DNA of 63,792 nucleotides from Actinomycetota bacterium (GTDB lineage: Bacteria > Actinomycetota > CADDZG01 > JAHWKV01 > JAOPZY01). The notes under the pieces were generated by a model. It saw nothing but the letters and a program-made list of their open reading frames with translations, made no database searches and was not told where the DNA came from. A program made the position numbers and the translations under genes. The DNA lies in assembly GCA_025963875.1 (NCBI GenBank), contig JAOPZY010000033.1:1-63792 (forward strand), given 5' to 3'. How positions within the stretch are numbered: the stretch's first letter is position 1; each line of letters starts with the position of its first letter. This document shows, in pieces, positions 37,520-57,658 of the stretch.

Positions 37520-37521
37520 CC

Positions 37522-37782
37522 CTACTTGACCCGGGCCTCCGCCTCGGCCGGGCGCTCGTAGCCGAACTTGCCCTCGGCGACCTCCTCGAGGGCGATGGAG
37601 AGCGACTTGGCGTGCTCGCCGAGGCGGCTGGACGAGACCTGCGGCGGCACGAAGTCCCGGATGCCCTCGCCGAGCTGGGAGTAGTACGAGTTGATCTGCC
37701 GGGCACGCTTGGCCGCCAGGATCACGAGCGTGTACCGGCTGTCGACCTTCTTCATCAGGGTTTCGATCTTCGGGTGGATCAA
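37522..37782 (-). CDS. rpoZ: DNA-directed RNA polymerase subunit omega
   Basis: (M)IHPKIETLMKKVDSRYTLVILAAKRARQIN. TTG 37782 lies 6 nt after AGGAG. Confidence 0.85.
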   Translation of the reverse strand: MIHPKIETLMKKVDSRYTLVILAAKRARQINSYYSQLGEGIRDFVPPQVSSSRLGEHAKSLSIALEEVAEGKFGYERPAEAEARVK

Positions 37783-37793
37783 AATGGGCTCCT

Positions 37794-38360
37794 TTACGAG
37801 CGCTGCTTGGCCTTCTCCATTATTTGTAACACCTCTTCCACCGCTTGATCGACCTCCGTGTTGACGACGACCCCGTCGAAGGACTTCTTCTGGCGCAGTT
37901 CGTCGTAGGCATCGGCGAGCCGGCGGCTGAGCGCCTCCGCCTGCTCGGTGCGCCGGTTGCGAAGCCGCTGCTCGAGGATCGCCAGCGAGGGAGGCTCGAT
38001 GAAGATGAGCACGGCGTGGGGCATCTGGCGCTTCACCTGGGCCGCGCCCTGGACGTCGATCTCGAGCAGGACGTCCCGCCCCGAGGCCAGCGCCTCCTCG
38101 ATGCTGCGCCGCGACGTGCCGTAGAAGTTGCCGTGCACGTCGGCGCACTCGACGAAGTCGCCGCGCTGGCGCATGAGGGAGAACGTCGTCGGGCTGACGA
38201 AGTAGTAGTGCTCTCCGTCGCGCTCCGTCGGGCGCGGCGGGCGCGTCGTGTAGGACACCGAGAGCGCGATGTCGGGACGGCGGACGAGGAGCCCTTGGAC
38301 GATCGTCCCCTTCCCGGCCCCCGAAGGTCCGGAAATGATGTACAGCTGTGAGTGCGCTAT
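37794..38360 (-). CDS. gmk: Guanylate kinase; start codon unresolved (ATA 38360 or CTG 38345)
   Basis: LYIISGPSGAGKGT P-loop, TTRPPRPTERDGEHYYF. No ATG/GTG/TTG in frame upstream of the P-loop strand. Confidence 0.85.
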   Translation of the reverse strand: MAHSQLYIISGPSGAGKGTIVQGLLVRRPDIALSVSYTTRPPRPTERDGEHYYFVSPTTFSLMRQRGDFVECADVHGNFYGTSRRSIEEALASGRDVLLEIDVQGAAQVKRQMPHAVLIFIEPPSLAILEQRLRNRRTEQAEALSRRLADAYDELRQKKSFDGVVVNTEVDQAVEEVLQIMEKAKQRS

Positions 38361-38674
38361 TTTCCCGTGAACTCCTTGAGGAGGGACTCGATCTGCTTGG
38401 CTCCGAGACCTCGCATCCGGCGTGACTCGGCGATGTCCAGCCTGGTCATGATCTTGCGAGCCCGCACCTTGCCCACTCCTCGTATCGTTTGCAGCACGTC
38501 GGAAACCTTCAGCTTGCCGACGATCTCGTCGTCGGTGCGGTCGAGCAGGTCCTTCAGGGTCGCCTCTCCCGACCGGAGCTGGTCCTTCAGTGCCGCCCGC
38601 TGCCGCCGAGCCTCGGCCGCCTTGGCAAGCGCGTCCCGGCGCTGATCCTCGCTCAGCGGAGGTGGTAACGCCAC
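38357..38674 (-). CDS. mihF: Actinobacterial integration host factor
   Basis: 105 aa. ...VSDVLQTIRGVGKVRARKIMTRLDIAESRRMRGLG... typical mIHF. Confidence 0.9.
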   Translation of the reverse strand: MALPPPLSEDQRRDALAKAAEARRQRAALKDQLRSGEATLKDLLDRTDDEIVGKLKVSDVLQTIRGVGKVRARKIMTRLDIAESRRMRGLGAKQIESLLKEFTGK

Positions 38675-38768: not shown

Positions 38769-39746
38769 ATGACCGCCGTCGAGTCCATCAGGTCCCGCTT
38801 CCTCTCGCACCCGGGGCTCGCCGCCAAGGCGGCGCTGCGCATGGTCCCCGGCATCCTCGGTCCGACGGACTGGGTGGGCGGCCCCGGCGACGACACCGCG
38901 GCCATCCCCTCCGACGGCGGGTTCCTGCTGGCCGCCGGTGAGGCGATGTTCCCCCCGTTCGTGGCGGCGGACCCCTACGGCGCCGGCGTCGCCTCGGTGG
39001 TGGCCAACGTCAACGACGTCGCCGCAATGGGCGGGCGGGCGGTGGCCCTCGCCAACACCGTCGTCGGGCCCGAGGCACAGCTGCGCGAGGCGCTGCGGGG
39101 CATGCGGTTCGCCTGCGACCTCTACGGCGTCCCCATGGTCGGGGGCCACCTGAGCGCCTGGGACGGGCCGGCGTCCGTCTCGGCGTTCGTCGTCGGGAAG
39201 GCGTCGACGCTGTTGTCGTCCCGCCACGCCGCCCCGGGCCAGGTCCTCCTCGCGGCCTTCTGCCTGGAGGGACGGGCCCGCGGCGACTTCCCCTACTTCA
39301 GCTCCGTGGCGGCCCGGGGCGTCGAGCTTGCCGGCGACGTCGCCGTGCTGCCGGCGATCGCCGAAGCGGGATGCTGCGTCGCCGCCAAGGACGTGAGCAT
39401 GGCGGGCCTGCTGGGGTCCCTGGCGATGCTCCTGGAGGCGACGGGGACGGGCGCGATTGTGGACCTGGCGTGCGTGCCCGTCCCGGACGGCGTCGGCCTG
39501 GAGCCGTGGCTGTTCACGTTCCCCACGTTCGGCTTCCTGCTCTGCTCCCCGCCCTCCCGGGCCGGCGAGTGCCGGGAGGCGTTCCACGCACGGGGGCTTG
39601 CGTGCGAGGTGATCGGCGCGATCGAGGCCGGGGGTTGCCTGCGGGTGCGCCTGGGTGCGGACGAGGCCACCCTCCTCGACTTCGCCACCGCCACGGTCAC
39701 CGGGTTGGGCTTGGGCAAAGACGTGGCCAGGAAATCGCGCTCATAG
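38769..39746 (+). CDS. AIR-synthase-related (PurM-superfamily) protein, sll0787 C-terminal-domain type
   Basis: GPGDDTAAI, NDVAAMGG, GGHLS motifs of the PurM fold. TATAGT at 38724-38729. Belongs by context to the radical-SAM cluster downstream. Confidence 0.7.
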   Translation: MTAVESIRSRFLSHPGLAAKAALRMVPGILGPTDWVGGPGDDTAAIPSDGGFLLAAGEAMFPPFVAADPYGAGVASVVANVNDVAAMGGRAVALANTVVGPEAQLREALRGMRFACDLYGVPMVGGHLSAWDGPASVSAFVVGKASTLLSSRHAAPGQVLLAAFCLEGRARGDFPYFSSVAARGVELAGDVAVLPAIAEAGCCVAAKDVSMAGLLGSLAMLLEATGTGAIVDLACVPVPDGVGLEPWLFTFPTFGFLLCSPPSRAGECREAFHARGLACEVIGAIEAGGCLRVRLGADEATLLDFATATVTGLGLGKDVARKSRS

Positions 39747-39763
39747 AAGGCCCCTGGTCCGAA

Positions 39764-39805
39764 GTTGGGAGCGAATCGCGCGTAGGCGCGCGCCAGGCTC
39801 CCAAC
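39764..39805. repeat. Nested palindromic repeat, family A copy
   Basis: GTTGGGAGC-gaat-CGCGCG-tagg-CGCGCG-ccag-GCTCCCAAC. The left side CCGAAGTTGGGAGC matches CCGAACTTAGGAGC of the 50.6 kb copies 12/14. Confidence 0.85.
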
Positions 39806-40031
39806 CTCATCCTCCGGCCCCCGGGTGGCGCGAAAAGCTCCTCAGTTCCCGGGACGCGCGCTGACCCGCTCCCCTGCGGCGTAGATCCCCGCGGTGCGGG
39901 GTAGGTATCCTGCGTTCGCCTTGACGCGCCCTGGGCGCTGGGAGCACACTGCTCGCCCGGAAGGTCCCGAGCCCGCTCCGAGGCCACCGCTGTACAACAC
40001 CGACGAGATCAGGTGAGAAAGGAGATGCCGC

Positions 40032-40658
40032 ATGCCCGAAGGGAAGAGAAACTTCTGGACGACCGTGCCGGGAGTCATCTCCGGCGTCGCCGCCATCGTG
40101 ACCGGCCTCGGCGTGCTGATCCCCCTGCTGCTCGGGGTTGGCGGCAAGCACACGAACACGAACAGCGCATCGCACAGCCCTTCCCCCAGCGTTACGAGCT
40201 CAACAGGGACCGAGGGCACCACCTCCACCACGGGTGGGGGGACGACCGGCACCGGGAGCCCGTCACCGACGGACAGCCTCGGATCGTCGCCCAGCGCCAG
40301 CGCCAGCGCCGGGGCTACGGGAGCAACGGGCATCTCCGCCGACCCCCCGAGCCTGAGCTTCGGGACGGTCAGGGCGAATGGGGGCACGTCGGACCAGGCG
40401 GTCACCATCAACAACCCGGGCAGCGTCCCCGTCATGATCGATCACGTGGCGGTCACGCCCTCGAATGCGCCGTTCACGATCACGAGCACGACCTGCGGAG
40501 AGGGATCCAGCATCGCGCCGCAGAGCTCCTGCCAGATCAAGCTGCACTTCGCGCCCACCGCTCTGGGGTCGGCGTCGGCATCGCTCGAGGTCCACTACCA
40601 CCCGCCACAGTCGGCCTTCACGTCGATCAGCCTCAGCGGAACGGGGTCGCTGGTCTGA
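40032..40658 (+). CDS. Membrane-anchored protein with S/T/G-rich linker and an ASH / choice-of-anchor-D-like beta-sandwich domain
   Basis: N-terminal TM (VISGVAAIVTGLGVLIPLLLG), low-complexity linker, then LSFGTVRANGGTSDQAVTINNPGSVPV...SCQIKLHFAPTALG. GAAAGGAG RBS. Confidence 0.6.
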   Translation: MPEGKRNFWTTVPGVISGVAAIVTGLGVLIPLLLGVGGKHTNTNSASHSPSPSVTSSTGTEGTTSTTGGGTTGTGSPSPTDSLGSSPSASASAGATGATGISADPPSLSFGTVRANGGTSDQAVTINNPGSVPVMIDHVAVTPSNAPFTITSTTCGEGSSIAPQSSCQIKLHFAPTALGSASASLEVHYHPPQSAFTSISLSGTGSLV

Positions 40659-40749
40659 GGGCCCGCGAGGAAACGACGCTGTACGTCGATCTGTGCTCAA
40701 AGAATCTCCCCAGGCGCCGCCGCCGCTCGTCTGACCGACGAAACCTCGC

Positions 40750-41319
40750 TCAGAGGCGGCGCAGGACCAGGGGGAGGTCGATCGCCATGGTCTGGTGGGG
40801 CCGCCCGACGAAGCTGACCGGCTCTCCGACCGCATACCAGCCGAGGTGCTCGAAGAAGCCCACGTTGGACGGCTGGATGTGGGCGATCATCTTCCGGCCC
40901 CCGGCCTGCGCCGCCGTCTGCACGGCGAAGCGCACGAGCGGTGCCCCCAGCCCGTTGTGGCGGAAGGAGGGCAGGACCGCCAGGCGGTCGCCCTTCCACA
41001 GTCCCGGCTCGAGATCGACGGCGTCGCCGTCGAGGGATGCATCGGTCAGGGGATAGAGGCGCACGGCCCCCCCGGCAACGTCGCCGCAGAGGCCGAGGAC
41101 GTGGACGGTGGCGGCGTCGCCGTCGTGATCGTCCGCATCGGACTCTTCGAACATTCCCTGCTCCTCCACGAACACCCGCCGGCGGATCTCGTGGTGCAGC
41201 GCCACCTCCCCGGGGTCGCGGGCCGGACGGCACACGACGTGCAGGCCGAGCTGGACGGCGGCGAAGGCCTTGCCCGGATGGAGGAAGGGCGACAGGGAGC
41301 GTGCGGGTTCAGCGGACAT
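40750..41319 (-). CDS. GNAT N-acetyltransferase, MSMEG_0567/sll0787 N-terminal-domain type
   Basis: 189 aa. RRRVFVEEQG, LAVLPSFRHNGLGAPLV acetyl-CoA loop. 11-nt overlap with the radical SAM gene. Confidence 0.75.
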   Translation of the reverse strand: MSAEPARSLSPFLHPGKAFAAVQLGLHVVCRPARDPGEVALHHEIRRRVFVEEQGMFEESDADDHDGDAATVHVLGLCGDVAGGAVRLYPLTDASLDGDAVDLEPGLWKGDRLAVLPSFRHNGLGAPLVRFAVQTAAQAGGRKMIAHIQPSNVGFFEHLGWYAVGEPVSFVGRPHQTMAIDLPLVLRRL

Positions 41320-42460
41320 TGAGGATGGGGAGTTGGCGACCGCCCGAGGGCGGCTCGCCGTGCCGCTCGTAGGCAGCGAGGGCCGAGCAGGCGCCGCAGC
41401 GGGCGCATCCGGCGTGGACCTCCCAGGACGCGAGGCCGTTGACCGCCAGGTAGGGGGCGACCTCCCGGTAGAGCGACTCGACGTACTCCGCGGGCGGCGG
41501 CACCTTGTCGCCCATCAGGCTGCCGGGGACCGGGCGCAGCGGGACGACGAAGGGGTACACCCCGGCGTCGATCGCCCGCTTGCAGCCGTCGATCGTCATC
41601 TGGAGGTCCTCGCCCATCCCGAGGATCACGTAGGTGGAGACCTGGCCCCTGCCGAAGATCTCGACGGCGCGCTGCCAGGCCCGGAAATAGCCGGCGACAC
41701 CGGTGCGGGCCTTTGCCGGCGCCACGTAGGCGAGGACGCCCGGATCGAAGGACTCCAGGTGCATGCCCACCGAGTCCACCCCCTGCTCCTTGATCTCCTC
41801 GAGCACCGAGAGGTCGTCCGGCGGCTCGAACTGTGCCTGCACGGGCAGGCCGCTCGCCGCCTTGATGGCCCTGGCGCACTTCCCGAGATAGCGAGCGCCC
41901 TTGTCGGCGCCTCCCGTCGTGCCGCTCGTGAGGGTGACGTCCACCGCCCCGTCGAGCTCCTTGGCGGCCACGGCCACCTCGGCGAGGTGCTCGGGCTTCT
42001 TGACCGGGATGGTCCGGCCCGCCTCGAGGGAGAGCTCGATGCCGCAGAAACGGCACTGATCGTCCTTGCCCCAGTACAGGCAGGTCTGGATGACGGTGGA
42101 GGCCAGCGAGTCGAGGTGCAGCAGCGCGATCTTCCAGTAGGGGATGCCGTCCGCCGTCGTCATGTCGTAGAACCTGGGCCTCGGCGGGACCTCGGCCCCC
42201 GCCAGGCGGCGGCCCTCGCGGTAGACGCCCCACGAACCCTCGTCCCCCTCGGGCTGCAGGACGTACGGAGAGTCCGCCACGTAGTCGGCGGTGAAGGGAA
42301 ACGTGACCGGGACACCTTCGACACGGATCATCCCGGCGTCGGACGGCCCGGCTCCCCCGCGGCGCGCCTGGATCGTGTCCTCGACCCGCACGCCGTAGCT
42401 CTGGAGCTCCGCCAGGAGCTCGCCGAGCGCCGGCCCGGACAGCGTGTCAGCCAAACTCAA
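41309..42460 (-). CDS. Radical SAM protein, MSMEG_0568 (NitD-like) type
   Basis: 383 aa. Cys cluster CLYWGKDDQCRFC, GGxxD-like TSGTTGG, C-terminal CARCGAC. TTG start 42460 (or TTG 42454). Confidence 0.75.
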   Translation of the reverse strand: MSLADTLSGPALGELLAELQSYGVRVEDTIQARRGGAGPSDAGMIRVEGVPVTFPFTADYVADSPYVLQPEGDEGSWGVYREGRRLAGAEVPPRPRFYDMTTADGIPYWKIALLHLDSLASTVIQTCLYWGKDDQCRFCGIELSLEAGRTIPVKKPEHLAEVAVAAKELDGAVDVTLTSGTTGGADKGARYLGKCARAIKAASGLPVQAQFEPPDDLSVLEEIKEQGVDSVGMHLESFDPGVLAYVAPAKARTGVAGYFRAWQRAVEIFGRGQVSTYVILGMGEDLQMTIDGCKRAIDAGVYPFVVPLRPVPGSLMGDKVPPPAEYVESLYREVAPYLAVNGLASWEVHAGCARCGACSALAAYERHGEPPSGGRQLPILNVR

Positions 42461-42466
42461 ATGCTC

Positions 42467-43327
42467 CTACTGGGCCTTCGTGTAGAGCTCTTCGAAATTC
42501 TGGTACAGGATCCGCTGCTTCAGCTCGCTGCCCACGGGTGCACCGTAGATCTTCCAGTATTCACCCCAGAAGTCGCTCCACGGCTCGTCCGAGGCGAAGA
42601 TCACCCGGTCGTGGCCCACGCCGCGCTTCTCGATCTCGGTCAGCAGCCACCGCGCACCGAACCCGATGGTCCAGGTGGTGTCGGTGTAGACCTTGTACCC
42701 CTCCTCCACCCAGTCGAGGAAGCGGGGGACGAGGCGGATGTGGCCGCTGACGCCGCCCCCGAAATGGACGAGATAGATCTTTACGCGCTTGCCGTACTTC
42801 TCGACCATCGGGATGAAGTTGCTGATGTCGGAGTTGCCGCCGGGGCTGGTGTGGAAGTGGAAGACGAGGTCGTGGGCCTCGGCGGCGTCGAAACAGGCAT
42901 CCGCGATCTCCCGGGTGGCGTCGTCCCAGCCCTCGGGGTTGGGGTTGCCGCCCAGCAGGAACGTGGTCTTCAGGGCCACGATGCCCTGCTCGCCGGCATT
43001 GCGGAGGGCCTCGCGGGTCATCTCGGCGTTCTGCGGCAGGAACGACACCCAGAGGCCGCCGAGGATCCGGTCCTCGGACTTGACCGCGTCCAGCACGAGC
43101 GGGTTCAGGAGGAAGGGCTGCTCCTGCTTCGGGATGCCGTAGTTCGGCAGGACCAGGCCCCGCTCGCAGCCGTAGGCGTCGAGGTGCTGGATGTAGTCCT
43201 TGGGCGTGGGGAACTCGTAGACCGTCGGCTTCACCGCTTCCTTCAGGTCGTAGAACTTCCAGGCGGCCATCTCACCGATGTGGCTGTGCCCGTCGATGAC
43301 CCGGCCGGCCACCCGCTCATCGCCCAT
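42467..43327 (-). CDS. Amidohydrolase_2 (TIM-barrel metal-dependent hydrolase) family protein
   Basis: VIDGHSHIG, HFHTSPG, IFASDEPW metal ligand pattern. ATG 43327 (AAGGAAGGGG 6 nt upstream) preferred over ATG 43363. Confidence 0.75.
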   Translation of the reverse strand: MGDERVAGRVIDGHSHIGEMAAWKFYDLKEAVKPTVYEFPTPKDYIQHLDAYGCERGLVLPNYGIPKQEQPFLLNPLVLDAVKSEDRILGGLWVSFLPQNAEMTREALRNAGEQGIVALKTTFLLGGNPNPEGWDDATREIADACFDAAEAHDLVFHFHTSPGGNSDISNFIPMVEKYGKRVKIYLVHFGGGVSGHIRLVPRFLDWVEEGYKVYTDTTWTIGFGARWLLTEIEKRGVGHDRVIFASDEPWSDFWGEYWKIYGAPVGSELKQRILYQNFEELYTKAQ

Positions 43328-43391
43328 GTGGCACCCCTTCCTTGCTGTGAAACGTCGTAACATCCCGGAAATAACTATAGGAAATATTCAT

Positions 43392-43748
43392 CTACCTTCG
43401 TTGATCCTCTCGCTCCGATGTGGGCAGTGTCAAGGCGCTTGCCTGAGCTTGGATCTCCCGTTCGCGCAGGGCGAAGGCGGCGGCCGCAACCAGCTCGGCC
43501 GTCGCAGGGTCGTCGGGCCCGCCCGCGGCGCGGAGGTGCTCGGCTGCCCGCTCGAAGGACGTCGCCGAGGCCGCCGCCCAGGACGCCACGAGCGCCTCGG
43601 GGCTGGCGACGACCAACAGCTCGTCTGCCAGCCCCCGAACCGCGAGAACGCAGCGCTGGTACCCGGAGGGGTCCGCGAGGATCGTCGGGTACAGCCGCTG
43701 CTCGGCGACCCGCCAGCGGCGGACCAGTTCCTCCAGCGCTTCCGGCAC
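43392..43748 (-). CDS. Hypothetical protein (118 aa)
   Basis: GTG 43748, 15 nt after the upstream stop. Helical, Ala-rich. No family recognised. Confidence 0.45.
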   Translation of the reverse strand: MPEALEELVRRWRVAEQRLYPTILADPSGYQRCVLAVRGLADELLVVASPEALVASWAAASATSFERAAEHLRAAGGPDDPATAELVAAAAFALREREIQAQASALTLPTSEREDQRR

Positions 43749-43765
43749 GTCGTTGGCCTGTGACC

Positions 43766-44251
43766 TCAGACGGTCCAGGTGCTGAGGACGAGCGCCTTCT
43801 CCCTGTACGCCTGGATCGTGAAATCGAGGACGTCCAACGGGTTGATGGGCTTGACGCCCTCCAGCATGTCGACCTCCCGCATGCCGTAGAGCGCGGCCGC
43901 CGAGAAGCGGCAGGCATAGACGTGGCCGCCTTCGTCGATGAAGGTCTTGAGCTGCTTGTTGTAGGCCTGCTCGCCGGGGAAGGGCTCGTCGCCGACCCGG
44001 GGGTAACCGCGGGTTGCGGCGGCGATGAGCGAGCCGGGGCCGTAGAGGATGATCGAGGTGTCGAATCCCTTCCGGTTGATACGGGTGCACGTGAGCAGGT
44101 TGACCAGGCCGACCGAACCCTCGAAGGGAACGGTGTGGAAAAAGACGTACGCGGTCTGGCCTTCCTCTGCCTTGTAATCCGGGAGGACCTTCTCTTCGTA
44201 GTCGACGATCGCGTCGCCCGGCTTAACCCGCTCCCCAACGATCTGTACCAT
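43766..44251 (-). CDS. MSMEG_0572 / Sll0783-type nitrogen-starvation-response protein (DsrE-like fold), tentative
   Basis: ATG 44251 after GGGAG. 161 aa, YVFFHTVPFEGSVGLVNLL...IILYGPGS...GGHVYACRFS pattern. Confidence 0.6.
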   Translation of the reverse strand: MVQIVGERVKPGDAIVDYEEKVLPDYKAEEGQTAYVFFHTVPFEGSVGLVNLLTCTRINRKGFDTSIILYGPGSLIAAATRGYPRVGDEPFPGEQAYNKQLKTFIDEGGHVYACRFSAAALYGMREVDMLEGVKPINPLDVLDFTIQAYREKALVLSTWTV

Positions 44252-44370
44252 CTCGACTCCCTTTCCTTTCGTTGACCTGCTTGTTTTATTCCTCGCTTGA
44301 CGTCTCGCCTGCCGGCTCGTAGGCCGGTTGAATCGATGAGCCCATCGATGAACCCTGCTCCTGCGCTGCA

Positions 44371-44652
44371 TCAGGGGGACGGGTCGGAGGGAGGCGGCGC
44401 CCTCCCCTTCCACGAGGGCCGGTAGGTCCACTGCCGGCGGTGGCTGCCCGGCATCATCTGCATGAGCGACCGGCGCCAGCTCCACGGCACCAGCCGGTAG
44501 GCAGGGACGAACACCCTGCGCCAGAACTGCGCCCGCAGGCCGCCACCCGTCGAGGGGGGCGCGGCACCGAGGTACTTCTCCGCCATCTCACGTTCGGACG
44601 CCTCCAGCAGGTAGTGCTGGGAGTTGACCCGCAACCATTCGGCGAAGGCCAC
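44371..44652 (-). CDS. Small conserved protein (93 aa), MSMEG_0570-like by position
   Basis: Starts 11 nt after the oxidoreductase stop. The basic C-terminus may be partly GC artefact. Confidence 0.45.
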   Translation of the reverse strand: MAFAEWLRVNSQHYLLEASEREMAEKYLGAAPPSTGGGLRAQFWRRVFVPAYRLVPWSWRRSLMQMMPGSHRRQWTYRPSWKGRAPPPSDPSP

Positions 44653-44663
44653 CGGGGGCGTCC

Positions 44664-46007
44664 CTAGGTGGACTTCCCGGCTTGCGCCAGCCGGGCGAGG
44701 CCGTTCTGGGCGGCCAGGGAGATGGGCTCGTTCAGGGCTCCGATCGGCGGCGAGTACACGTTCTCCATCACCGCGAGGTCCCGCATCGTGATGCCCTTCT
44801 TCGAACAGACGGCAAGGAAGTCGGCACGTTCCTTGATGCCCTCCCCGCCGACGAGCTGGGCGCCGATGATGCGGAGGGTCTTCGGCTCCGCGAGCAGCTT
44901 GACGAGGATCTTCTGCATGCCCGGGTAGTAGCGGGCGCGGGAGATGCCCTGGGCCATGCCAAGGTGGTAGGGCATCCCGAGCGCCCCCGCGGTGGTCTCA
45001 CCGAACGAGACACCACCGATCATCCACTTGCCCGCCACCATGCCCCACGGGACGAAGACGGGATCGTAGGTGCGCTGGCCGTTGGCGGCGTTGGTGCCGG
45101 CGGTCTTGCCCTGCGCGTAGGCATGGCTGCCGGAGAGGCCCTGCAGCGGCAGCATCGTGAAGCCCTGCGGGACCTCGACGCAGTCCCCCGCAGCGAACAC
45201 CCCGCCGCCCGACGTTGCCATCCGTTCGTCGACGACGATGCCGCCGGTGGAGCCGATCTCGAGGCCGGCCTCCCGCGCCAGGTGGTTGTTCGGCTGCTTG
45301 TGGGTGCAGACCACGACCACGTCGGCGGGGATCTCGCCCTCGCTAGTCCGGACCCCCCGCACCTCCTTGTCACCCAGGAACGCCTCGAGCTTGGCGTTGA
45401 AGTGCATCTGGACGCCCATCTCGGCCCACGAGTCCTGCACCGGCTTCATGATGTCGGGGTCGGCCACCTCCGACAGCGCCCACGGGTGGGCGTCGACGAG
45501 ATGGGTCTCCAGCCCCCGATGGGCGAGGGCCGTGGTCATCTCGAGCCCGAGGGGCGAGGCCTCGACGACCACGGCGGTCTTGGCCTTGTCGAGGATGGGG
45601 TCCCACTCCATGGCGCGGCGGATGTTCTTCACGTAGTGCAGACCCTCGAGGTCCGATCCGGGGACGCCCGGATCCGCGTAGTTGAAGCCCGTGGCGACAA
45701 CGAGGCGGTCGTACGGGACGCGCTCACCGCTCGCCAGGACAACGGCATGGCCCGCCGCGTCGACGCTTGCCACCGTGGTCTCGTAGTGGATGTCGAAGCC
45801 GGCGTTCTCGTAGAACTCCTTGCCCTGCAGGATCAGTCCCTGGAACGTCTCGATCTCGCGGCCGTGGACGTAGGGGATACCGCAGGGGCTGTAGCCGACA
45901 TCCTCGAACTCGGTGAACACGGTGATCCGGGCGTCCGGGTCTGCCTGCTTCGCCGCCCCCGCCGCGCCGATCCCAGCAGCTCCGCCCCCCACGACGACGA
46001 TCCGCAG
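44664..46007 (-). CDS. FAD-dependent pyridine-nucleotide-disulfide-type oxidoreductase, MSMEG_0569 type; start unresolved
   Basis: RIVVVGGGAAGIGAAG dinucleotide fold, second GxGxxG region, C-terminal dimerisation domain. The first canonical start (GTG 45992) would delete beta-1; upstream options are CTG 46007, ACG 46013 and ATC 46001, after GGGAGAGGAGA. Confidence 0.8.
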   Translation of the reverse strand: MRIVVVGGGAAGIGAAGAAKQADPDARITVFTEFEDVGYSPCGIPYVHGREIETFQGLILQGKEFYENAGFDIHYETTVASVDAAGHAVVLASGERVPYDRLVVATGFNYADPGVPGSDLEGLHYVKNIRRAMEWDPILDKAKTAVVVEASPLGLEMTTALAHRGLETHLVDAHPWALSEVADPDIMKPVQDSWAEMGVQMHFNAKLEAFLGDKEVRGVRTSEGEIPADVVVVCTHKQPNNHLAREAGLEIGSTGGIVVDERMATSGGGVFAAGDCVEVPQGFTMLPLQGLSGSHAYAQGKTAGTNAANGQRTYDPVFVPWGMVAGKWMIGGVSFGETTAGALGMPYHLGMAQGISRARYYPGMQKILVKLLAEPKTLRIIGAQLVGGEGIKERADFLAVCSKKGITMRDLAVMENVYSPPIGALNEPISLAAQNGLARLAQAGKST

Positions 46008-46033
46008 AGCCGTGGCCGGTCTCCTCTCCCTCT

Positions 46034-46051
46034 GGGGTCCTCGGGGACCCC
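46034..46051. promoter_or_regulatory. 18-bp palindrome in the divergent control region (candidate operator)
   Basis: GGGGTCCTCGGGGACCCC, 8 of 9 pairs complementary. Lies between the oxidoreductase operon and the XRE-cupin regulator gene. Confidence 0.4.
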
Positions 46052-46099
46052 TGTCCGAGATGTTTCTCTCGTCGCTACAGGGGTCTCTGGAGATGTAAC

Positions 46100-46750
46100 A
46101 TGCAATTTACTATGATGAAGATCGTATCTACCGCAGGCAACTCTACCCGCGGCGGCAGCCCACTTCAAGCCGCGGCGCTGCAGGGGGCGACCACGGAAGA
46201 CGTCATTGCTTCGATCGGCCCGAAGGTCCGCCAGCTCCGGCGGCAGAAGAACCTTTCCCTCCAGCAACTGGCCGAGCGTGCGGGCCTGTCGGCGGCGGCC
46301 ATCCACAAGATCGAGCACAACGGGATGGTCCCCACGATCACGACCCTGATGAAGCTCTCCGCCGCCCTGAACCGGTCCGTCGCCTACTTCGTCGACGAGG
46401 AGCAGGCCGAGCCCGCGGTCCTCGTTCGCTCCGACGAGCGCAAGCAGGTCTTCACCTCCAAGGACGGCCTCGAGCTGGCCGGCATCAGCGGCCCCTACGG
46501 CCACTTCTTCATGGCCGGGGCCGTCGCCACCATGGAGGCGGGGGCCGACTCCGGGCCCAAGCGGATGGAACATCCGGGCGAGGAGCTGATCTTCCTGCTG
46601 GACGGCACGATGAGCTTCGAGGTCGAGGGAGAGGAGTACACGCTGCGCCGCGGCGACGCCCTGCACTTCCGCACCGACCGGCCCCACCGGTGGGGGAACC
46701 CGTCCGCTCGGCCCGCTCGCGCCATCTGGATGGCGCTGCGCTCGACGTAG
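46100..46750 (+). CDS. XRE-family HTH transcriptional regulator with C-terminal cupin domain
   Basis: IGPKVRQLRRQKNLSLQQLAERAGLSAAAIHKIEHN HTH, then a cupin (HPGEELIFLLDGTMSFEV...GDALHF). Confidence 0.85.
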   Translation: MQFTMMKIVSTAGNSTRGGSPLQAAALQGATTEDVIASIGPKVRQLRRQKNLSLQQLAERAGLSAAAIHKIEHNGMVPTITTLMKLSAALNRSVAYFVDEEQAEPAVLVRSDERKQVFTSKDGLELAGISGPYGHFFMAGAVATMEAGADSGPKRMEHPGEELIFLLDGTMSFEVEGEEYTLRRGDALHFRTDRPHRWGNPSARPARAIWMALRST

Positions 46751-46765
46751 AAGGGGCCAGCGTCC

Positions 46766-47746
46766 ATGGCTCGCCCCCGCATCGCCGTGGTGGCCGTCGG
46801 CGGCAACGCGCTCACGCGCGAGGGTGAGGCCGGCACGTACGCCCAGCAGTGGCGCAACGCGACCAAGGTGGCCGGAGCCATCTGCCGGCTGGTCGAGGCC
46901 GGCTACCGGCCGGTGCTCATCCACGGCAACGGCCCCCAGGTCGGCAACCTCTCGATCCAGCAGGAGGAGGGCAGCCGGCTCGTGCCGGCCCAGCCGCTCG
47001 CCGAGCTGGTTGCGATGACCCAGGGTGCGATCGGCCACCTGCTCTCGCTCGCGCTCCACCACGCCTCCACCGGCACGCTCGGGGTCGTCGACATCGTCAC
47101 CCACGTCGAGGTCAAATCCTCCGACCCGGCCTTCCGCAATCCCACCAAACCGATCGGGCCGTTCCTCGCCGAGGACGTCGCCGGCAAGCTGGCGGCCGAG
47201 CGGGACTGGGTGGTCCGGGAGGACGCCGGCCGTGGCTTCCGGCGGGTCGTCGCCTCCCCGGAACCGAAGGCCATCCTGGAGGCCGCCGCCATCAAGGAGC
47301 TCGCGAGCAAGGGCTTCCTCGTGATCGCCGGAGGCGGCGGCGGCATCCCCGTCGTGCGCCGGGGGCGGAGCGTCTCCGGGGTGGACGCGGTGATCGACAA
47401 GGACCTCACCGCCGCCCGCCTCGCCACCTCGGTCGGCGCCGACACCCTCGTGTTCCTCACCGGCGCCAGCAACGTCTTCCTCGACTGGGGGACACCGCGC
47501 CAGCGTGCCGTCGCCGAGATGACCGCCGCCGAGGCCGAAGCCCACATCGCCGACGGCCAGTTCGCCGCCGGCAGCATGGGACCGAAGATCATCGCCGCGG
47601 TGCGCTTCCTCGCCGACGGAGGCCAGCAGTGCCTCATCACCTCCTCGCGCCATCTCGCCGCCGCCCTGGCCGGCAGCCACGGCACCCGGATCGTGCCCAC
47701 TGCGGGCCGGATGCCGGCCTCCCGGCGAAGCGCCGCCGCCCAGTGA
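46766..47746 (+). CDS. arcC: Carbamate kinase
   Basis: IAVVAVGGNAL, HGNGPQVG, GGGGGIPV, VIDKDL motifs. Confidence 0.9.
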   Translation: MARPRIAVVAVGGNALTREGEAGTYAQQWRNATKVAGAICRLVEAGYRPVLIHGNGPQVGNLSIQQEEGSRLVPAQPLAELVAMTQGAIGHLLSLALHHASTGTLGVVDIVTHVEVKSSDPAFRNPTKPIGPFLAEDVAGKLAAERDWVVREDAGRGFRRVVASPEPKAILEAAAIKELASKGFLVIAGGGGGIPVVRRGRSVSGVDAVIDKDLTAARLATSVGADTLVFLTGASNVFLDWGTPRQRAVAEMTAAEAEAHIADGQFAAGSMGPKIIAAVRFLADGGQQCLITSSRHLAAALAGSHGTRIVPTAGRMPASRRSAAAQ

Positions 47747-49290
47747 CCGAGGCGGCAACCAGGGTCCACGCCGACACCTACATCGATTCGGTGCAGCTCA
47801 TGGCGGCTACCCGGGCCATGTCCGGTGCGCCGGGCGTCGAGTATGCGGCGGCCGTGATGGCGACACCCGCCAACCGCGACGACCTTGCCGCCGGCGGGTT
47901 CGATGTGCCCGCAGCCGGGGCCAACGACCTCGTCCTGGCGGTGCGGGCAGGCTCCGCGGCCGACGCGGAGGCCGGACTCGACGCCGGCGACGAAACGCTG
48001 GCCTCGGCGGCAGCCTCGGCGGAGCCCGGAGGCGCCGAGCCGGGAGAGAGCCCAAGGACCCTGGAGGACGCCGTCGCCGCCCTGCCGGACGCCAACGTCG
48101 CCATCGTCTCGGTCCCCGGTCCCTTCGCCGCCCTCGAGGCCCACAAGGCCCTGTCGCAGGGGCTGCACGTCCTGCTGTTCAGCGACAACGTTCCGGTCGG
48201 CGACGAGGTGGCGCTGAAGGAGCGGGGCGCGTCGCTCGGCCTGCTGGTCATGGGGCCCGGCGCAGGCACCGCCATGCTCGGCGGCACCGGGCTCGGCTTC
48301 GCCAACGCGGTGCGGGCGGGCCGGGTCGGCGTGGTCGCGGCAGCCGGCACGGGGGCCCAGGAGGTCATGTGCCTCCTCGACCGCTGGGGCGAGGGCGTCA
48401 GCCAGGCCATCGGCGTCGGAGGGCGCGACCTGTCGTCGGCCGTCGGCGGGACGATGGCCGGCCTCGGGCTGCGGGCTCTCGCCGAGGACCCCGCCACCGA
48501 GGCCATCCTGCTGGTGTCGAAGCCGCCCTCCGCCGACGTGGCGGCCCGCCTGTTGCAGTCGGCGCACGGCAAGCCGCTGGTCGCCGCCCTCGTCGGCCTG
48601 GCAGCGCCGGTCGAGGCCGCCGCGGGCGTCCTGATCACGGACACGCTGGAGGAGGGGGTGCTCCTGACGCTGGAAGGCCTGGGGGCGACGCCACCCGATC
48701 CGGGTGCCGGCCTCGCCTCGCTCGTCTCCTCGGCGCTGGCCGGCCTGGACCCGGCGCGCCGCAGCCTGCTTGGTCTGTTCTCAGGTGGGACGCTCTGCTA
48801 CGAGTCCATGGTGGTGATGAGCCGGTATCTCGGTGCTATCCACTCGAACACCCCGCTCAACTATTCTTGGGGAATTCCGGCACCCGCAGGCGCCCATGTC
48901 TGCCTGGACCTCGGCGAGGAGGAGTACACCCGTGGACGGCCCCACCCCATGATCGACCCCGGCGACCGTGCGGAGCGCATCGCCGCCGCGCCCGGGGACG
49001 GCAGCGTCGGCGTCGTGCTGATCGACGTCGTGCTCGGCTACGGGGGGCACGCCGACCCGGCCTCCGTGCTTGCGCCCGCCTGCCGGTCGGTCACGGCCCA
49101 GCCCGGCGGCCCCAGGGTGGTCGCCTACGTCCTGGGGACCGAAGCCGACCCGCAGGTCCGGTCGAAGCAGTGCGCGGCGCTGGAGGAGGCGGGCTGCCTC
49201 CTCGCCCCGACCGCCACCCGGGCGGCACTCCTGGCCGCCGCCATCGCCGCTCGCAACCCTTCGATTGCAGAGGACGGGCGTGCCGGATGA
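47743..49290 (+). CDS. fdrA: FdrA-family protein (succinyl-CoA-synthetase-alpha-like)
   Basis: GTG 47743 overlaps the arcC TGA (GTGA). VSVPGPFAALEAHKAL, GPGAGTAMLGG, GTGAQEV, SGGTLCYES blocks typical of FdrA. Confidence 0.8.
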   Translation: MTEAATRVHADTYIDSVQLMAATRAMSGAPGVEYAAAVMATPANRDDLAAGGFDVPAAGANDLVLAVRAGSAADAEAGLDAGDETLASAAASAEPGGAEPGESPRTLEDAVAALPDANVAIVSVPGPFAALEAHKALSQGLHVLLFSDNVPVGDEVALKERGASLGLLVMGPGAGTAMLGGTGLGFANAVRAGRVGVVAAAGTGAQEVMCLLDRWGEGVSQAIGVGGRDLSSAVGGTMAGLGLRALAEDPATEAILLVSKPPSADVAARLLQSAHGKPLVAALVGLAAPVEAAAGVLITDTLEEGVLLTLEGLGATPPDPGAGLASLVSSALAGLDPARRSLLGLFSGGTLCYESMVVMSRYLGAIHSNTPLNYSWGIPAPAGAHVCLDLGEEEYTRGRPHPMIDPGDRAERIAAAPGDGSVGVVLIDVVLGYGGHADPASVLAPACRSVTAQPGGPRVVAYVLGTEADPQVRSKQCAALEEAGCLLAPTATRAALLAAAIAARNPSIAEDGRAG

Positions 49291-50552
49291 GGAGCCTGCC
49301 CCGCATCGCCCTCGTCACCTATTCGACCCGCCCCCGCGGGGGGCCGGTCCACACCGTCGAGCTTGCCGAGGCGTTGCAGGCCCTGGACTGTCCCGTCCAT
49401 GTCTTCGCGATCGGCGACCCAGGCGCCGGATTCTTCCGGGCCCTGGCGGCGCCCCACACGATCTTCCCGGGACCCGCGTCCGCAGGCACGCTCGAGGAGC
49501 GGGTCTTCGCCTCGGTGGACGCCCTGGCCGCCGGCCTCGCCGCGGCAGTGCCGGGGCGGTTCGACGTCGTCCATGTCCAGGACTGCATCGCCTCCACGGC
49601 TGCCATGGCCCTTCGGGAGGCCAATCCCTGCCTCCCGCTCGTGCGCACGGTCCACCACCTGGACGACTTCACCACGTCGGCACTCGTCAACTGCCAGCAC
49701 CGCTCGGTCCTCGAGCCCGACCACCTTCTCGTGGTCAGCGAGTTCTGGCGCCGCGCGCTGCGGGACGGCTACGGCGTCGAGGCGACCGTCGTGACCAACG
49801 GCGTCGACGCCGGTCGTTTTGCGGCTCGGAACGGTGCCACGGCCCAGCGCTCGGTGCTGCGGGACCGGGCGGGGGCGGACGGGCGGTTCCTCTTCCTGAC
49901 CGTCGGCGGCATCGAGCCCCGCAAGGGGAGCCTGCACCTCATGGAGGCGCTGGCGGCGCTCAAGGGTGAGCTGGATCCCCCCCCGATGCTCGCGGTGGTG
50001 GGGGGCCACTCGTTCCAGGACCACGCCGCCTACCGAGAGGGGGCGCTCGCCCGGGCATCGGACCTGGGCCTCACGGAGCGCGACGTCGTCATCCTCGGCA
50101 CGGTGCCGGACGCCGAGATGCCCGGCTGGTACCAGGCCGCCGACACCTTCGTCTTCCCCTCCGTCAAGGAGGGCTTCGGCCTCGTGGTCCTGGAGGCGAT
50201 GGCGGCGGGCCTCCCCGTGGTCGCGAGCGACATCCCCGTGTTCCGGGAGTTCCTGGGTGGCGGCAAGGCGCTGCTGGCCCGCGCGGGGAGCTCCGCATCC
50301 CTGGCGAGCGCCATGCGCCGCGCCGTCACCGACCGGGCCGAACGGGCACGCCTGGCCGCTGGCGGCCCCGCGGTGGCGGCCCACTTCAGCTGGGAGCGGA
50401 CGGCTCGCCAGCACCTCGATTTCTACGAACGGGTGCTCAGCGAAGCCGAGGACGCCGCCACGTTCGAGGCGGGCCAGGCCGGAGGTCTGGGGGCGGGCTC
50501 GGCCCAGTTTCCGTCAAAAAGCGTGGTGAGCGCCCTTTTTGACGGAAACTAA
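49287..50552 (+). CDS. GT4 glycosyltransferase, MSMEG_0565 type
   Basis: ATGA overlap with fdrA. RIALVTYSTRPRGGPVH, EGFGLVVLEAMAAGLPVV (EX7E). The last ~15 codons run into the hairpin repeat. Confidence 0.8.
   Translation: MRSLPRIALVTYSTRPRGGPVHTVELAEALQALDCPVHVFAIGDPGAGFFRALAAPHTIFPGPASAGTLEERVFASVDALAAGLAAAVPGRFDVVHVQDCIASTAAMALREANPCLPLVRTVHHLDDFTTSALVNCQHRSVLEPDHLLVVSEFWRRALRDGYGVEATVVTNGVDAGRFAARNGATAQRSVLRDRAGADGRFLFLTVGGIEPRKGSLHLMEALAALKGELDPPPMLAVVGGHSFQDHAAYREGALARASDLGLTERDVVILGTVPDAEMPGWYQAADTFVFPSVKEGFGLVVLEAMAAGLPVVASDIPVFREFLGGGKALLARAGSSASLASAMRRAVTDRAERARLAAGGPAVAAHFSWERTARQHLDFYERVLSEAEDAATFEAGQAGGLGAGSAQFPSKSVVSALFDGN
50506..50550. repeat. Hairpin repeat, family B, second copy with identical arms
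   Basis: AGTTTCCGTCAAAAAG-cgtggtgagcgcc-CTTTTTGACGGAAACT. Confidence 0.9.
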
Positions 50553-50820: not shown

Positions 50821-51573
50821 TCAGCCGGAGCCCACCGACGCCTCCGGGGGTGGCACGGCCCGGGGGGCCGTCCATTGGGAGTCGTCCCGCTCCGACAGCT
50901 GGCCGTCGTGCATCGCCAGGCGGCGGTGCGCCCACCCGGCGACGTTGTCGGCGTGGGTCACCAGGATGACCGTCACCCCGTGCTCGGCGGCGAGGCTGCG
51001 GAGGATCGTGCCGATCTCCTCGGAGGAGCGGCTGTCGAGGTTGCCGGTGGGCTCGTCCGCCAGGATGACCCGCGGCTTGTTGGCCATGGCGCGGGCTATC
51101 GCCACCCGCTGCTGCTCACCTCCCGACAGCAGCGACGGGAGGTGCCGGGTGCGCTCCGACAGCCCCACCTGGTCGAGCAGCTCGGCCGCCCGCTGGCGCC
51201 GCTGCGCCTTGCCCTCCTTGAGCGGCACCATGGCGATCTCGACGTTCTCGGAGGCCGTCAGCGTCGGGATCAGGTTGAAGGCCTGGAAGACGAAGCCGAT
51301 GTCCCTGGCCCGGATCGAGGTCAGTTCCCCATCCTCGAGCTTGGAGAGGTCGCGGCCGTCGAAGACGACGCTGCCCCGGCTCGGCTTGTCGAGGGCGCCG
51401 AGCAGCTGCAGCATCGTGGACTTGCCGGACCCGCTCGGTCCCTCGATGGCCACGAGCTCGCCGGGATACAGCTCCAGGTCGACGTTGTCCACGGCCCGGA
51501 CCTCGGCCGACCCGACCCGGAAGTAGCGGTCCACTGCCTTGAGCCGGTAGAGCGGCTCGGTGGTTGTCTCCAT
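50821..51573 (-). CDS. ABC transporter ATP-binding protein (MacB/LolD/FtsE-like)
   Basis: ATG 51573 after AAGGAG. GPSGSGKST, LSGGEQQRVAIARA, ILADEPTGNLD. Confidence 0.9.
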   Translation of the reverse strand: METTTEPLYRLKAVDRYFRVGSAEVRAVDNVDLELYPGELVAIEGPSGSGKSTMLQLLGALDKPSRGSVVFDGRDLSKLEDGELTSIRARDIGFVFQAFNLIPTLTASENVEIAMVPLKEGKAQRRQRAAELLDQVGLSERTRHLPSLLSGGEQQRVAIARAMANKPRVILADEPTGNLDSRSSEEIGTILRSLAAEHGVTVILVTHADNVAGWAHRRLAMHDGQLSERDDSQWTAPRAVPPPEASVGSG

Positions 51574-51608
51574 GGATGTTCGTGCTCCTTTCAGGTTTAG
51601 GCGAGGTC

Positions 51609-57577: not shown

Positions 57578-57596
57578 GGTGGCCTCCGTCGCTTTC

Positions 57597-57645: not shown

Positions 57646-57658
57646 GCGCCACTGCAGT

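Follow-up and report, generated by a model that had tools for sequence, protein, structure and literature searches.

A nitrilase-less supercluster of the Nit1C family

The stretch of DNA described here (the window: 63,792 nucleotides, positions 1 to 63,792 of contig JAOPZY010000033.1 in the Actinomycetota assembly GCA_025963875.1) carries a gene cluster of the Nit1C / MSMEG_0565-0572 (‘gpr’) family, in a lineage that has no nitrilase. Clusters of this family, also called sll0783-0787, have been known since 2005 and occur in many phyla and on hundreds of plasmids. They respond to nitrogen starvation and affect cyanide assimilation, polyhydroxybutyrate accumulation and peroxide resistance, and the literature on their induction and phenotypes is confined to M. 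smegmatis, Synechocystis and Pseudomonas. The conserved supercluster found in the window spans about 21 kb (38769-59874; Table 1) and has two insertions, one coding for an anchored Ig-like protein and the other for a MacB-type ATP-binding cassette (ABC) exporter. We are confident that its structure is correctly described as a Nit1C-type supercluster that lacks the nitrilase and includes AllFGH/ArcC and Xcb-like genes.

The G+C content of the window is about 70%, and mechanical lists of its open reading frames (ORFs) are crowded. Genes were called from a frame plot of G+C at third codon positions (GC3) and with a gene caller that uses position-specific GC, which together left one clear gene per stretch of the window. 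Family membership was judged by scanning the window proteins with NCBIfam and Pfam profiles against their curated cut-offs. Relatives were sought with the radical S-adenosylmethionine (SAM) protein, which has more than 7381 homologues; a scan with one genome per GTDB species gave 450, and the best 80 of these (radical SAM proteins 61-92% identical) were analysed by mapping the window proteins onto their loci by tblastn. Thirty-three loci reach at least 8 kb to each side of the radical SAM gene, and in these ‘well-covered’ loci presence was counted within 10 kb. The relatives comprise metagenome-assembled genomes (MAGs) of Actinomycetota, including Jiangellaceae, Streptosporangiaceae, Micromonosporaceae and Kineosporiaceae, together with Euzebyales, Egibacteraceae, many Acidimicrobiia, Candidatus Dormibacterota, Chloroflexota and one cultured Nonomuraea, sp. 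NPDC049649 (L076). A canonical cluster on a Rhizobium daejeonense plasmid (L081) served as reference, its proteins being used as tblastn seeds.

The gene coordinates and strands proposed in an earlier note on this DNA, made from the sequence alone, were reproduced by the frame plot and the gene caller. The GTGA (47743) and ATGA (49287) overlaps that couple carbamate kinase, FdrA and glycosyltransferase (GT) genes are both present, as are the palindrome and the anchored protein that it had placed between the AIR-synthase-like (AIRS-like) and GNAT genes. Its right-hand boundary at 50552 proved too narrow, as the tblastn mapping showed that genes lying 4-9 kb further right share the conserved neighbourhood. 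Nor is the AIRS-like gene ‘detached’, as had been claimed: an opposite-strand, convergent gene is the usual arrangement in this clade, with 66 of 80 relatives having it convergent to the GNAT gene.

Within the minus-strand operon, 11 nt separate the flavoprotein gene from that of a 93-aa protein (P93), 17 nt the DsrE-like gene from that of a 118-aa protein (P118), and 6 nt the Amidohydro_2 (AH2) gene from the radical SAM gene, which overlaps the GNAT gene by 11 nt. The gap between the GNAT and AIRS-like genes is only 8-60 nt in most relatives; the window has a 1-kb insertion there (39747-40749). A homologue of the inserted anchored protein in relative L086 has ASH/HYDIN Ig-like Pfam domains, and the same gap in L086 also carries an AbiEii toxin gene. 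The presence of extra genes in both cases suggests that this gap is an insertion hotspot. Another ORF within the insertion (39842-40435, minus strand) fits the GC3 frame, but it has a low coding score and no family match and was rejected in favour of the plus-strand anchored protein. In the window and in relatives L002, L087 and L088, the MacB-type exporter separates the GT gene from that of AllH. L089 and most other loci do not have it. It may serve to export the product of the cluster or be unrelated to it.

Table 1. Genes and other features of the supercluster, with the evidence on which each assignment is based.
Feature	Position	Strand	Evidence or remark
AIR-synthase-like (AIRS-like), divergent sll0787-type	38769-39746	+	TIGR04049 best match; PF00586 and PF02769
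Hairpin, 22-nt arms, terminator-like	39761-39808		between AIRS-like gene and anchored ORF
N-terminally anchored S/T-rich Ig-like protein (inserted, probably unrelated)	40032-40658	+	translation
MSMEG_0567/Sll0786 GNAT	40750-41319	-	TIGR04045
MSMEG_0568 radical SAM	41309-42460	-	TIGR04043
Amidohydro_2 (AH2) TIM-barrel metal-dependent enzyme	42467-43327	-	PF04909
118-aa protein (P118)	43392-43748	-	alignment with relatives
MSMEG_0572/Sll0783 DsrE-like	43766-44251	-	TIGR04044
93-aa protein (P93)	44371-44652	-	conservation
Single-cysteine Pyr_redox_2 flavoprotein	44664-46007	-	PF07992; start CTG 46007 or GTG 45992
XRE helix-turn-helix and cupin regulator, PuuR-like	46100-46750	+	PF01381, PF07883
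Carbamate kinase ArcC	46766-47746	+	NF009007
FdrA/AllF-type (succinyl-CoA-synthetase-alpha-like)	47743-49290	+	NF004760 (below cut-off), PF00549
MSMEG_0565 GT4 glycosyltransferase	49287-50552	+	TIGR04047
MacB-type ABC exporter	50821-53426	-	ATPase 50821-51573; FtsX/MacB_PCD permease 51609-53426
AllH-like (DUF2877)	53538-54248	-	PF11392
AllG-like (DUF1116)	54245-55684	-	PF06545
OsmC-like two-cysteine protein, peroxiredoxin fold	55683-56072	+	PF02566, 67 bits
XcbC-like lyase, aspartase/fumarase superfamily	56084-57652	-	NF052535
XcbD-like lyase, adenylosuccinate-lyase family	57659-58987	-	NF052536
XcbA family (DUF7714)	58972-59874	-	NF052538, PF24830

Signature proteins of the Nit1C core

The genes had been assigned in the earlier note to the MSMEG_056x/sll078x families, and the profile scans bear this out in part. 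The radical SAM protein (TIGR04043, 411.6 bits against a cut-off of 303.7), the GNAT protein (TIGR04045, 96.4 against 68.45) and the DsrE-like protein (TIGR04044, 221.9 against 109.85) all score above their cut-offs, whereas the AIRS-like protein remains below that of its best model (TIGR04049, 279.3 against 321.3; TIGR04050, 127 against 312) and the flavoprotein is not of the MSMEG_0569 family. The AIRS-like protein is 38.6% identical over 324 aa to a Rhizobium sll0787-family protein. The radical SAM protein, which also matches the variant radical SAM model NF045502, has a variant Cys motif and a C-terminal CxxCxxC, and its gene adjoins the GNAT gene in 79 of 79 loci. The cysteine in the VYACRF motif of the DsrE-like protein is invariant.

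A GT4 gene had been seen beside fdrA, but its identity as a member of the MSMEG_0565 family was missed. Its product scores 387 bits with TIGR04047 (cut-off 259.85), with MshA and BshA as the next-best NCBIfam matches. As a member of the MSMEG_0565 family, this gene is a signature component of the cluster and no add-on.

The canonical order on the Rhizobium daejeonense plasmid is 0572 - Nit6803 nitrilase - radical SAM - GNAT - AIRS - GT - 0570 - 0569 - Pnap_2097, and the radical SAM protein of the window is only about 45% identical to canonical ones. MSMEG_0568-type radical SAM genes at this distance (about 45% identity) are found on 515 plasmid records, 373 from Klebsiella and 30 from Escherichia, indicating that the canonical cluster is highly mobile.

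The nitrilase slot and the Amidohydro_2 protein

The earlier statement that the window holds no nitrilase ORF is upheld by two kinds of search. None of the genes called in the window that code for 140 aa or more matches PF00795 (in the left 36 kb, all such genes were scanned against Pfam as ten joined strings), and two Nit6803 nitrilase seeds, from Rhizobium and Methylocystis, gave no six-frame tblastn match in the window or in the 80 loci. The Rhizobium seeds for MSMEG_0569, MSMEG_0570 and Pnap_2097 likewise found no tblastn match in the window or the 80 loci. As a control, Rhizobium seeds for the five shared families did match, as expected.

In 48 of 53 loci the gene for the AH2 protein comes directly before the radical SAM gene, on its 5′ side, and so fills the slot that the nitrilase holds in canonical clusters. 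The protein scores 61.3 bits with PF04909 (cut-off 26.4) and has no NCBIfam match. Its predicted metal ligands H14 and H16 (H-x-H), H188 and D247 are invariant in 27 sequences, and the 120 best-scoring of its 1205 homologues are 77-99% identical, a sign of strong constraint. An AlphaFold2 (AF2) model (pLDDT 76) has alternating strands and helices that fit a TIM barrel. Foldseek places it closest to LigI (2-pyrone-4,6-dicarboxylate lactonase), the decarboxylase IDCase and the hydratase LigJ, all as weak matches (TM about 0.55). No match was found among PDB sequences or in the plasmid collection.

From this gene the earlier note had drawn the idea that AH2 replaces the nitrilase non-orthologously and carries out C-N hydrolysis on a carbamoylated or ureido intermediate tied to carbamoyl phosphate. 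The positional part of the idea stands: AH2 occupies the exact nitrilase slot, coupled to the radical SAM gene, and the two genes never occur together in the sample, since the 80 loci have no nitrilase and a Methylocystis hybrid cluster described below has a nitrilase and no AH2. The conserved metal ligands, the strong constraint and the carbamoyl handling confirmed by AllG, AllH and ArcC also speak for it. The functional part fares less well. Eleven of the 33 well-covered relatives have neither gene within 10 kb, five loci carry a 48-52% identical homologue elsewhere, beside the OsmC gene, and the Methylocystis hybrid has its nitrilase together with FdrA and AllG. The protein resembles no solved structure in sequence, and its fold relatives are lactonases, decarboxylases and hydratases, so that the label ‘Amidohydrolase_2’ need not imply C-N hydrolysis. 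We therefore regard a replacement of the nitrilase reaction by AH2 as doubtful. The protein is an accessory of the cluster, and its weak fold matches place it in the amidohydrolase superfamily only.

A carbamoyl module

Four genes of the supercluster match components of one known enzyme system. E. coli AllF (FdrA), AllG (YlbE) and AllH (YlbF) form oxamic transcarbamylase, which makes oxamate and carbamoyl phosphate from oxalurate and phosphate, and the carbamate kinase YbcF/AllK then turns carbamoyl phosphate into ATP, CO2 and NH3 (PMC11326118, PMC9843812). The carbamate kinase of the window scores 314 bits with NF009007 (cut-off 266) and 349.8 with TIGR00746, just below the cut-off of 358.25. 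Its FdrA protein scores 408.6 with NF004760, below the cut-off of 433, and 104 bits with PF00549, and its orthologues in relatives L084 and L086 carry the domain PF27530 (HMA_AllF_N). AllG (PF06545, 228 against a cut-off of 27) and AllH (PF11392, 68 against 25) are clear matches, and their genes are adjacent in 18 of 20 loci.

The suggestion that ArcC and FdrA belong to the cluster is borne out by adjacency, which holds for FdrA and ArcC in 40 of 40 loci and for GT and FdrA in 46 of 47, and by the translational coupling of FdrA to the signature GT. AllG and AllH, which complete the set of oxamic transcarbamylase and carbamate kinase, add weight to the related idea of an intermediate with a carbamoyl or ureido group.

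Genes resembling those for coenzyme M biosynthesis

The right-hand end of the supercluster resembles a pathway worked out in Xanthobacter autotrophicus Py2, where xcbABCDE serve to make coenzyme M (CoM). XcbB (ComA) makes phosphosulfolactate from phosphoenolpyruvate and sulfite, XcbC forms sulfoacrylate by elimination of phosphate, XcbD (3-sulfopropionylcysteine synthase) adds cysteine, the pyridoxal phosphate enzyme XcbE releases sulfoethanethioaldehyde, and the [2Fe-2S] protein XcbA reduces sulfoethanethioaldehyde to CoM (PMC9457059). XcbA of the window scores 367 bits with NF052538 (cut-off 150) and 308 with PF24830, with its cysteines conserved. The XcbD-like lyase has NF052536 as its best match by a wide margin (582, below the cut-off of 600), and the best match of the XcbC-like lyase is NF052535 (448, below the cut-off of 575), ahead of argH (273). 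The XcbC-like protein is 62% identical to the product of a Methylocystis gene that stands beside a phosphosulfolactate synthase gene. XcbA and XcbD genes are adjacent in 36 of 36 loci.

A Methylocystis seed detected phosphosulfolactate synthase in 42 of the 80 loci, mostly between the AIRS-like and XcbA genes. XcbE-like proteins, whose best NCBIfam match is XcbE (314 against a cut-off of 450), are encoded in 32 of 80, always between XcbD and XcbC, which are themselves adjacent in 0 of 31. Of the relatives with sufficient flanking sequence, most have both phosphosulfolactate synthase and XcbE. The lineage of the window differs, in that XcbA, XcbD and XcbC abut directly, with neither XcbE nor phosphosulfolactate synthase. 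Three independent contigs of this lineage (L087-L089, XcbD 71-92% identical) also lack both genes and share the run XcbA-XcbD-XcbC-OsmC-AllG-AllH. The run continues into GT and FdrA genes in L088 and L089, and in L089 it is contiguous, free of the ABC exporter, and extends on into ArcC, cupin and flavoprotein genes, up to the end of the contig within the P93 gene. The recurrence of the same absence in three independent contigs argues that the form seen in the window is a stable reduced sub-variant and no accident of assembly. A further idea, that AH2 stands in for the absent XcbE or ComA, was rejected, as AH2 co-occurs with both in many loci.

When plasmids were searched with the XcbA-like protein, the matches included known CoM producers (Xanthobacter, Nocardioides JS614 and Mycolicibacterium chubuense) and two Methylocystis iwaonis plasmids on which about 3 kb separate the gene from one for an MSMEG_0568 radical SAM protein.

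The flavoprotein and other partners

The first gene of the minus-strand operon had been read as that of an FAD oxidoreductase. Its product is not of the MSMEG_0569 type; it belongs to Pyr_redox_2 (PF07992, 167 bits) and resembles CoA-disulfide reductase (CoADR); tblastn with the Rhizobium MSMEG_0569 protein detected no similarity. Among PDB sequences it comes nearest to NADH oxidases, CoADR and CoA-persulfide reductase, and it has a conserved single-cysteine SPCGIPY motif. Its best profile matches, to CoADR and NADH oxidase models, all stay below their cut-offs; the CoADR model TIGR03385 gives 241 bits against 579. The motif and this score together suggest an enzyme class shared with CoADR, yet no CoADR orthologue. 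The gene is present where it had been predicted, but position 46007, given as its start, is a CTG codon, and the first canonical start is GTG 45992. The Rossmann strand RIVVVGGG begins at the CTG and would be cut by a start at the GTG, suggesting that a non-canonical start codon is used.

P93 adjoins the flavoprotein in 38 of 38 loci and has homologues in about 40 loci and on the Methylocystis plasmid; it matches no NCBIfam or Pfam family. Its identification as MSMEG_0570 was rejected, as tblastn with an MSMEG_0570 seed detected no similarity. P118 corresponds to the N-terminal half of the members of a conserved family, which measure about 207-222 aa and occur in 51 loci (for example L086 6943-7566, L084 8421-9056 and Methylocystis L082 10052-10717). 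The C-terminal stretch of about 100 residues is deleted in the window, with no room left for it before AH2. The OsmC-like protein occurs in 20 of the 33 well-covered loci, and its gene also lies beside the Methylocystis cluster.

Linkage across phyla and a nitrilase-containing hybrid

Among the well-covered loci, the GT is present in 32, FdrA and AllG in 28 each, ArcC and XcbA in 25 each, XcbD in 24, XcbC in 23, XcbE-like and AH2 proteins in 22 each, and the DsrE-like protein and flavoprotein in 21 each. Between lineages (Actinomycetes, Acidimicrobiia, Euzebyales, Dormibacterota and Chloroflexota) the order of the blocks is shuffled and the tight adjacencies are kept. Linkage that survives rearrangement across phyla points to function, and not to inherited synteny alone.

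One could argue that the neighbourhood is coincidental, with arcC-fdrA, allGH and the xcb-like genes functionally unrelated to the Nit1C-type genes. The ABC exporter does separate the Xcb/AllGH block in the window, an inserted gene separates the AIRS-like gene, and many loci come from related MAGs, in which synteny could be inherited. Against this, the linkage persists through many rearrangements in several phyla and classes, the signature GT almost always adjoins FdrA and overlaps its gene by 4 nt in the window, and the same partners surround a distant nitrilase-containing cluster (radical SAM 45% identical) on an alphaproteobacterial plasmid. Coincidence is accordingly close to refuted, and we consider it very improbable.

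This distant cluster, on Methylocystis iwaonis plasmid pSS37A-Re-1 (L082, 209118-229087), is a hybrid that keeps the canonical Nit6803 nitrilase cluster. Its first part holds the flavoprotein, the 93-aa protein, MSMEG_0572, DUF1116, GT, an FdrA-like protein, a 222-aa protein of the P118 family and a cupin, followed by Pnap_2097, AIRS, GNAT, radical SAM and the Nit6803 nitrilase; a divergent part holds OsmC, phosphosulfolactate synthase, XcbA, XcbD, XcbE and XcbC. The PGAP names of its genes (‘oxidoreductase’, ‘hypothetical’, ‘argininosuccinate lyase’) hide the kinship, and literature searches found no description of this annotated cluster.

Eight loci have a membrane ORF of about 199 aa next to the cluster; in two of them, from Dormibacterota (L051 3405-4004 and L053 832-1431, both on the minus strand), the ORF adjoins the GT gene. 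Judged by eye, it looks like the AmiS/UreI amide and urea channels.

A shared motif between the divergent operons

The XRE-cupin gene is the first gene of the arcC-fdrA-GT operon and is divergent from the flavoprotein operon. Its product matches the PuuR model NF007408 with 82 bits, below the cut-off. The divergent promoter region contains a motif at 46106-46149, TTTACTATGATGAAGATCGTATCTACCGCAGGCAACTCTACCCG, composed of ACTATGAT and CTRTAGT-type boxes (paired ACTATRRT/CTRTAGT), and then AACTCTACCC. At least two boxes are present in the divergent regions of 15 of 29 relatives, compared with 0.3 expected in shuffled sequences. The motif overlaps three candidate ATG starts of the XRE-cupin ORF (46100, 46112 and 46115); in relative L016 it is out of frame with this ORF, which argues that it is conserved as DNA.

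We therefore consider the motif a candidate operator of the XRE-cupin regulator, and the arrangement is consistent with control of both divergent operons by one regulator. The shared motif also speaks against the possibility, raised in the earlier note, that the arcC-fdrA-GT unit is unlinked to the cluster. A promoter and terminator scan gave nothing above chance apart from one promoter-like site that overlaps the motif, and an Rfam scan of 36000-62500 (E ≤ 0.1) found no riboswitch or other RNA from which a ligand could be named.

Genomic surroundings

The cluster directly adjoins an actinobacterial housekeeping block, mIHF-gmk-rpoZ-coaBC-metK-priA (36317-38674, 25540-26769). The same junction occurs in L002 and L086, suggesting that the insertion point is stable in the lineage of the window. 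The left 36 kb holds housekeeping genes (pheST, a rib operon, hisG, infC, fmt, def, priA and metK) as well as urease accessory genes, an arginase-family gene, glycosyltransferases and a penicillin amidase. The latter (PF01804) is split into two plus-strand ORFs, 27678-29165 and 29199-30581, that cover profile positions 1-254 and 286-576, and this could reflect a frameshift, a pseudogene or a sequencing error. Beyond the right end of the cluster, a minus-strand gene with a strong coding signal (61063-62151) codes for a 362-aa protein with no Pfam or NCBIfam match. At the corresponding position in L083 and L087, flanked by GT87 and pyrE, there is an ORF without a Pfam match, of 362 aa and 325 aa respectively.

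Possible pathways

We tentatively propose that the supercluster encodes a pathway that involves carbamoyl turnover, concerns a CoM-type metabolite containing sulfur and is connected with redox or nitrogen stress. The established basis of this proposal consists of the family assignments, the genes present, their conserved linkage, the conservation of catalytic cysteines and what is known of the chemistry of the homologous Xcb and AllFGH/AllK enzymes. The XRE-cupin protein would co-regulate the two divergent operons through their shared operator, and the enzymes would jointly make or remodel a small sulfur metabolite derived from CoM or resembling it. The Xcb-like enzymes would install the thiol. 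A scaffold would be elaborated by the glycosyltransferase, the GNAT protein, the AIRS-like ATP-dependent enzyme and the radical SAM protein, and the AllFGH-like complex and carbamate kinase would add or remove a carbamoyl (ureido) group via carbamoyl phosphate. The chemistry of the product that involves disulfides, persulfides and peroxide would be the task of the CoADR-like reductase, the DsrE-like protein and OsmC. The role of the system would be redox or peroxide protection under nitrogen limitation, by comparison with the M. smegmatis gpr cluster, for which peroxide resistance and an effect on NADPH have been shown genetically (PMC6039565).

Several observations weigh against this proposal. 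Neither phosphosulfolactate synthase (XcbB/ComA) nor XcbE was detected in the window, whether by tblastn or by PF02679 and PF00291, and without them CoM cannot be made from these genes alone. The XcbC- and XcbD-like proteins score below their NCBIfam cut-offs and may therefore act on substrates other than those of the CoM pathway. About a third of relatives have no module of flavoprotein, P93 and DsrE-like protein within 10 kb, and synteny among related MAGs is in part shared ancestry. For AllFGH and carbamate kinase only catabolic roles are known, the peroxide phenotype was observed with a cluster of another genus that includes a nitrilase, and we know of no product or activity for the core Nit1C proteins.

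An alternative is a catabolic pathway that scavenges nitrogen and sulfur. An external ureido and/or sulfonated compound would be taken up and degraded, with NH3 and ATP gained by AllFGH-like phosphorolysis and carbamate kinase, the lyases and AH2 trimming the carbon skeleton and the PuuR-like regulator sensing the substrate. Such a role would agree with the catabolic function of AllFGH and carbamate kinase in E. coli (PMC11326118, PMC9843812), with the resemblance of the regulator to PuuR, which controls a catabolic operon, with the induction of canonical clusters by nitrogen starvation (PMC6039565, PMC4222082) and with the AmiS/UreI-looking ORF beside the cluster in eight loci. However, proteins of the glycosyltransferase, GNAT, AIRS-like and radical SAM types usually point to biosynthesis, and 42 relatives hold the complete biosynthetic xcbBADEC set, including phosphosulfolactate synthase, in the cluster. 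There is also no conserved uptake transporter, the ABC system of the window being a lineage-specific exporter of MacB type, and Pfam scans of the called genes of the window revealed no other allantoin-pathway families (allantoinase, allantoate amidohydrolase or ureidoglycolate dehydrogenase). We consider catabolic scavenging unlikely.

The CoM-type proposal can be taken a step further, to a hitherto unrecognised low-molecular-weight thiol system of Actinomycetota, Dormibacterota and Chloroflexota. A sulfonate thiol would be made by the Xcb-like enzymes, elaborated by the Nit1C core, with a carbamoyl group dealt with by the AllFGH-like proteins and carbamate kinase, kept reduced by the CoADR-like flavoprotein and used by the OsmC-like protein as a peroxidase. 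Mycothiol, bacillithiol and CoA-CoADR systems offer an analogy, since the supercluster shares with them genes for a GT4 protein, a GNAT protein and a metal-dependent hydrolase, and also has a disulfide reductase of its own with a single cysteine and a protein with the fold of a thiol peroxidase. The window differs from them in having no cysteine ligase and no LmbE-type deacetylase, and its radical SAM, AIRS-like, AllFGH and Xcb proteins have no counterparts in the mycothiol, bacillithiol and CoA pathways. This extension is speculative and, in our estimation, quite unlikely; if true, it would provide a chemical function for the Nit1C/gpr cluster and explain the link to peroxide resistance and NADPH.

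The individual families have already been named by NCBI models, the canonical cluster is well known, and the variant is widespread, the window being one member of it. What the composition offers is a first set of chemically informative partners for the Nit1C core, namely thiol installation from cysteine and transcarbamoylation linked to carbamoyl phosphate. The joining of these two known chemistries to the nitrilase-less variant leads to concrete, testable hypotheses on the substrate class, and it suggests a role for bacterial CoM biosynthesis genes outside alkene metabolism. We found no paper linking phosphosulfolactate synthase, xcb or allFGH genes to the Nit1C cluster. If the proposal is correct, CoM-type chemistry would extend to abundant soil Actinomycetota and Dormibacterota.

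Comparison with known systems

The E. coli system of AllFGH and AllK/YbcF has all four of its components in the window (FdrA/AllF-like, AllG, AllH and carbamate kinase). The genes differ in being split over two operons, the FdrA protein scores slightly below its cut-off, and the substrate is presumably not oxalurate. Compared with Xanthobacter xcbABCDE, the window lacks XcbB and XcbE, its relatives carry the whole set in the order B-A-D-E-C, and the XcbC-, XcbD- and XcbE-like proteins score below the cut-offs. No genes for CoM-dependent alkene or epoxide metabolism lie nearby, the genes being embedded instead in a Nit1C-type cluster. Shared with Xanthobacter are an XcbA protein that scores above its cut-off and two lyases that have XcbD and XcbC as best NCBIfam matches.

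Relative to the canonical Nit1C cluster (L081), the window is without the Nit6803 nitrilase, the MSMEG_0569 flavoprotein, MSMEG_0570 and Pnap_2097. Its AIRS-like protein falls below the cut-off and is encoded convergently, its GT gene has been relocated into the arcC-fdrA operon, and it adds AH2, the CoADR-like flavoprotein, P93, AllFGH-like proteins, ArcC, Xcb-like proteins and OsmC. The two clusters have in common five families (TIGR04043, TIGR04045, the AIRS-like sll0787 type, TIGR04044 and TIGR04047) and the local order DsrE - X - radical SAM - GNAT.

The Methylocystis hybrid is unlike the window in keeping the nitrilase, Pnap_2097, phosphosulfolactate synthase and XcbE, and in lacking AH2; no carbamate kinase or AllH is annotated in it. 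In other respects it is a close counterpart, sharing P93, a P118-family protein, the cupin, OsmC, XcbA and XcbD, and its proteins are 58% (flavoprotein), 64% (DsrE-like), 54% (AllG), 55% (FdrA), 52% (GT) and 62% (XcbC) identical to those of the window.

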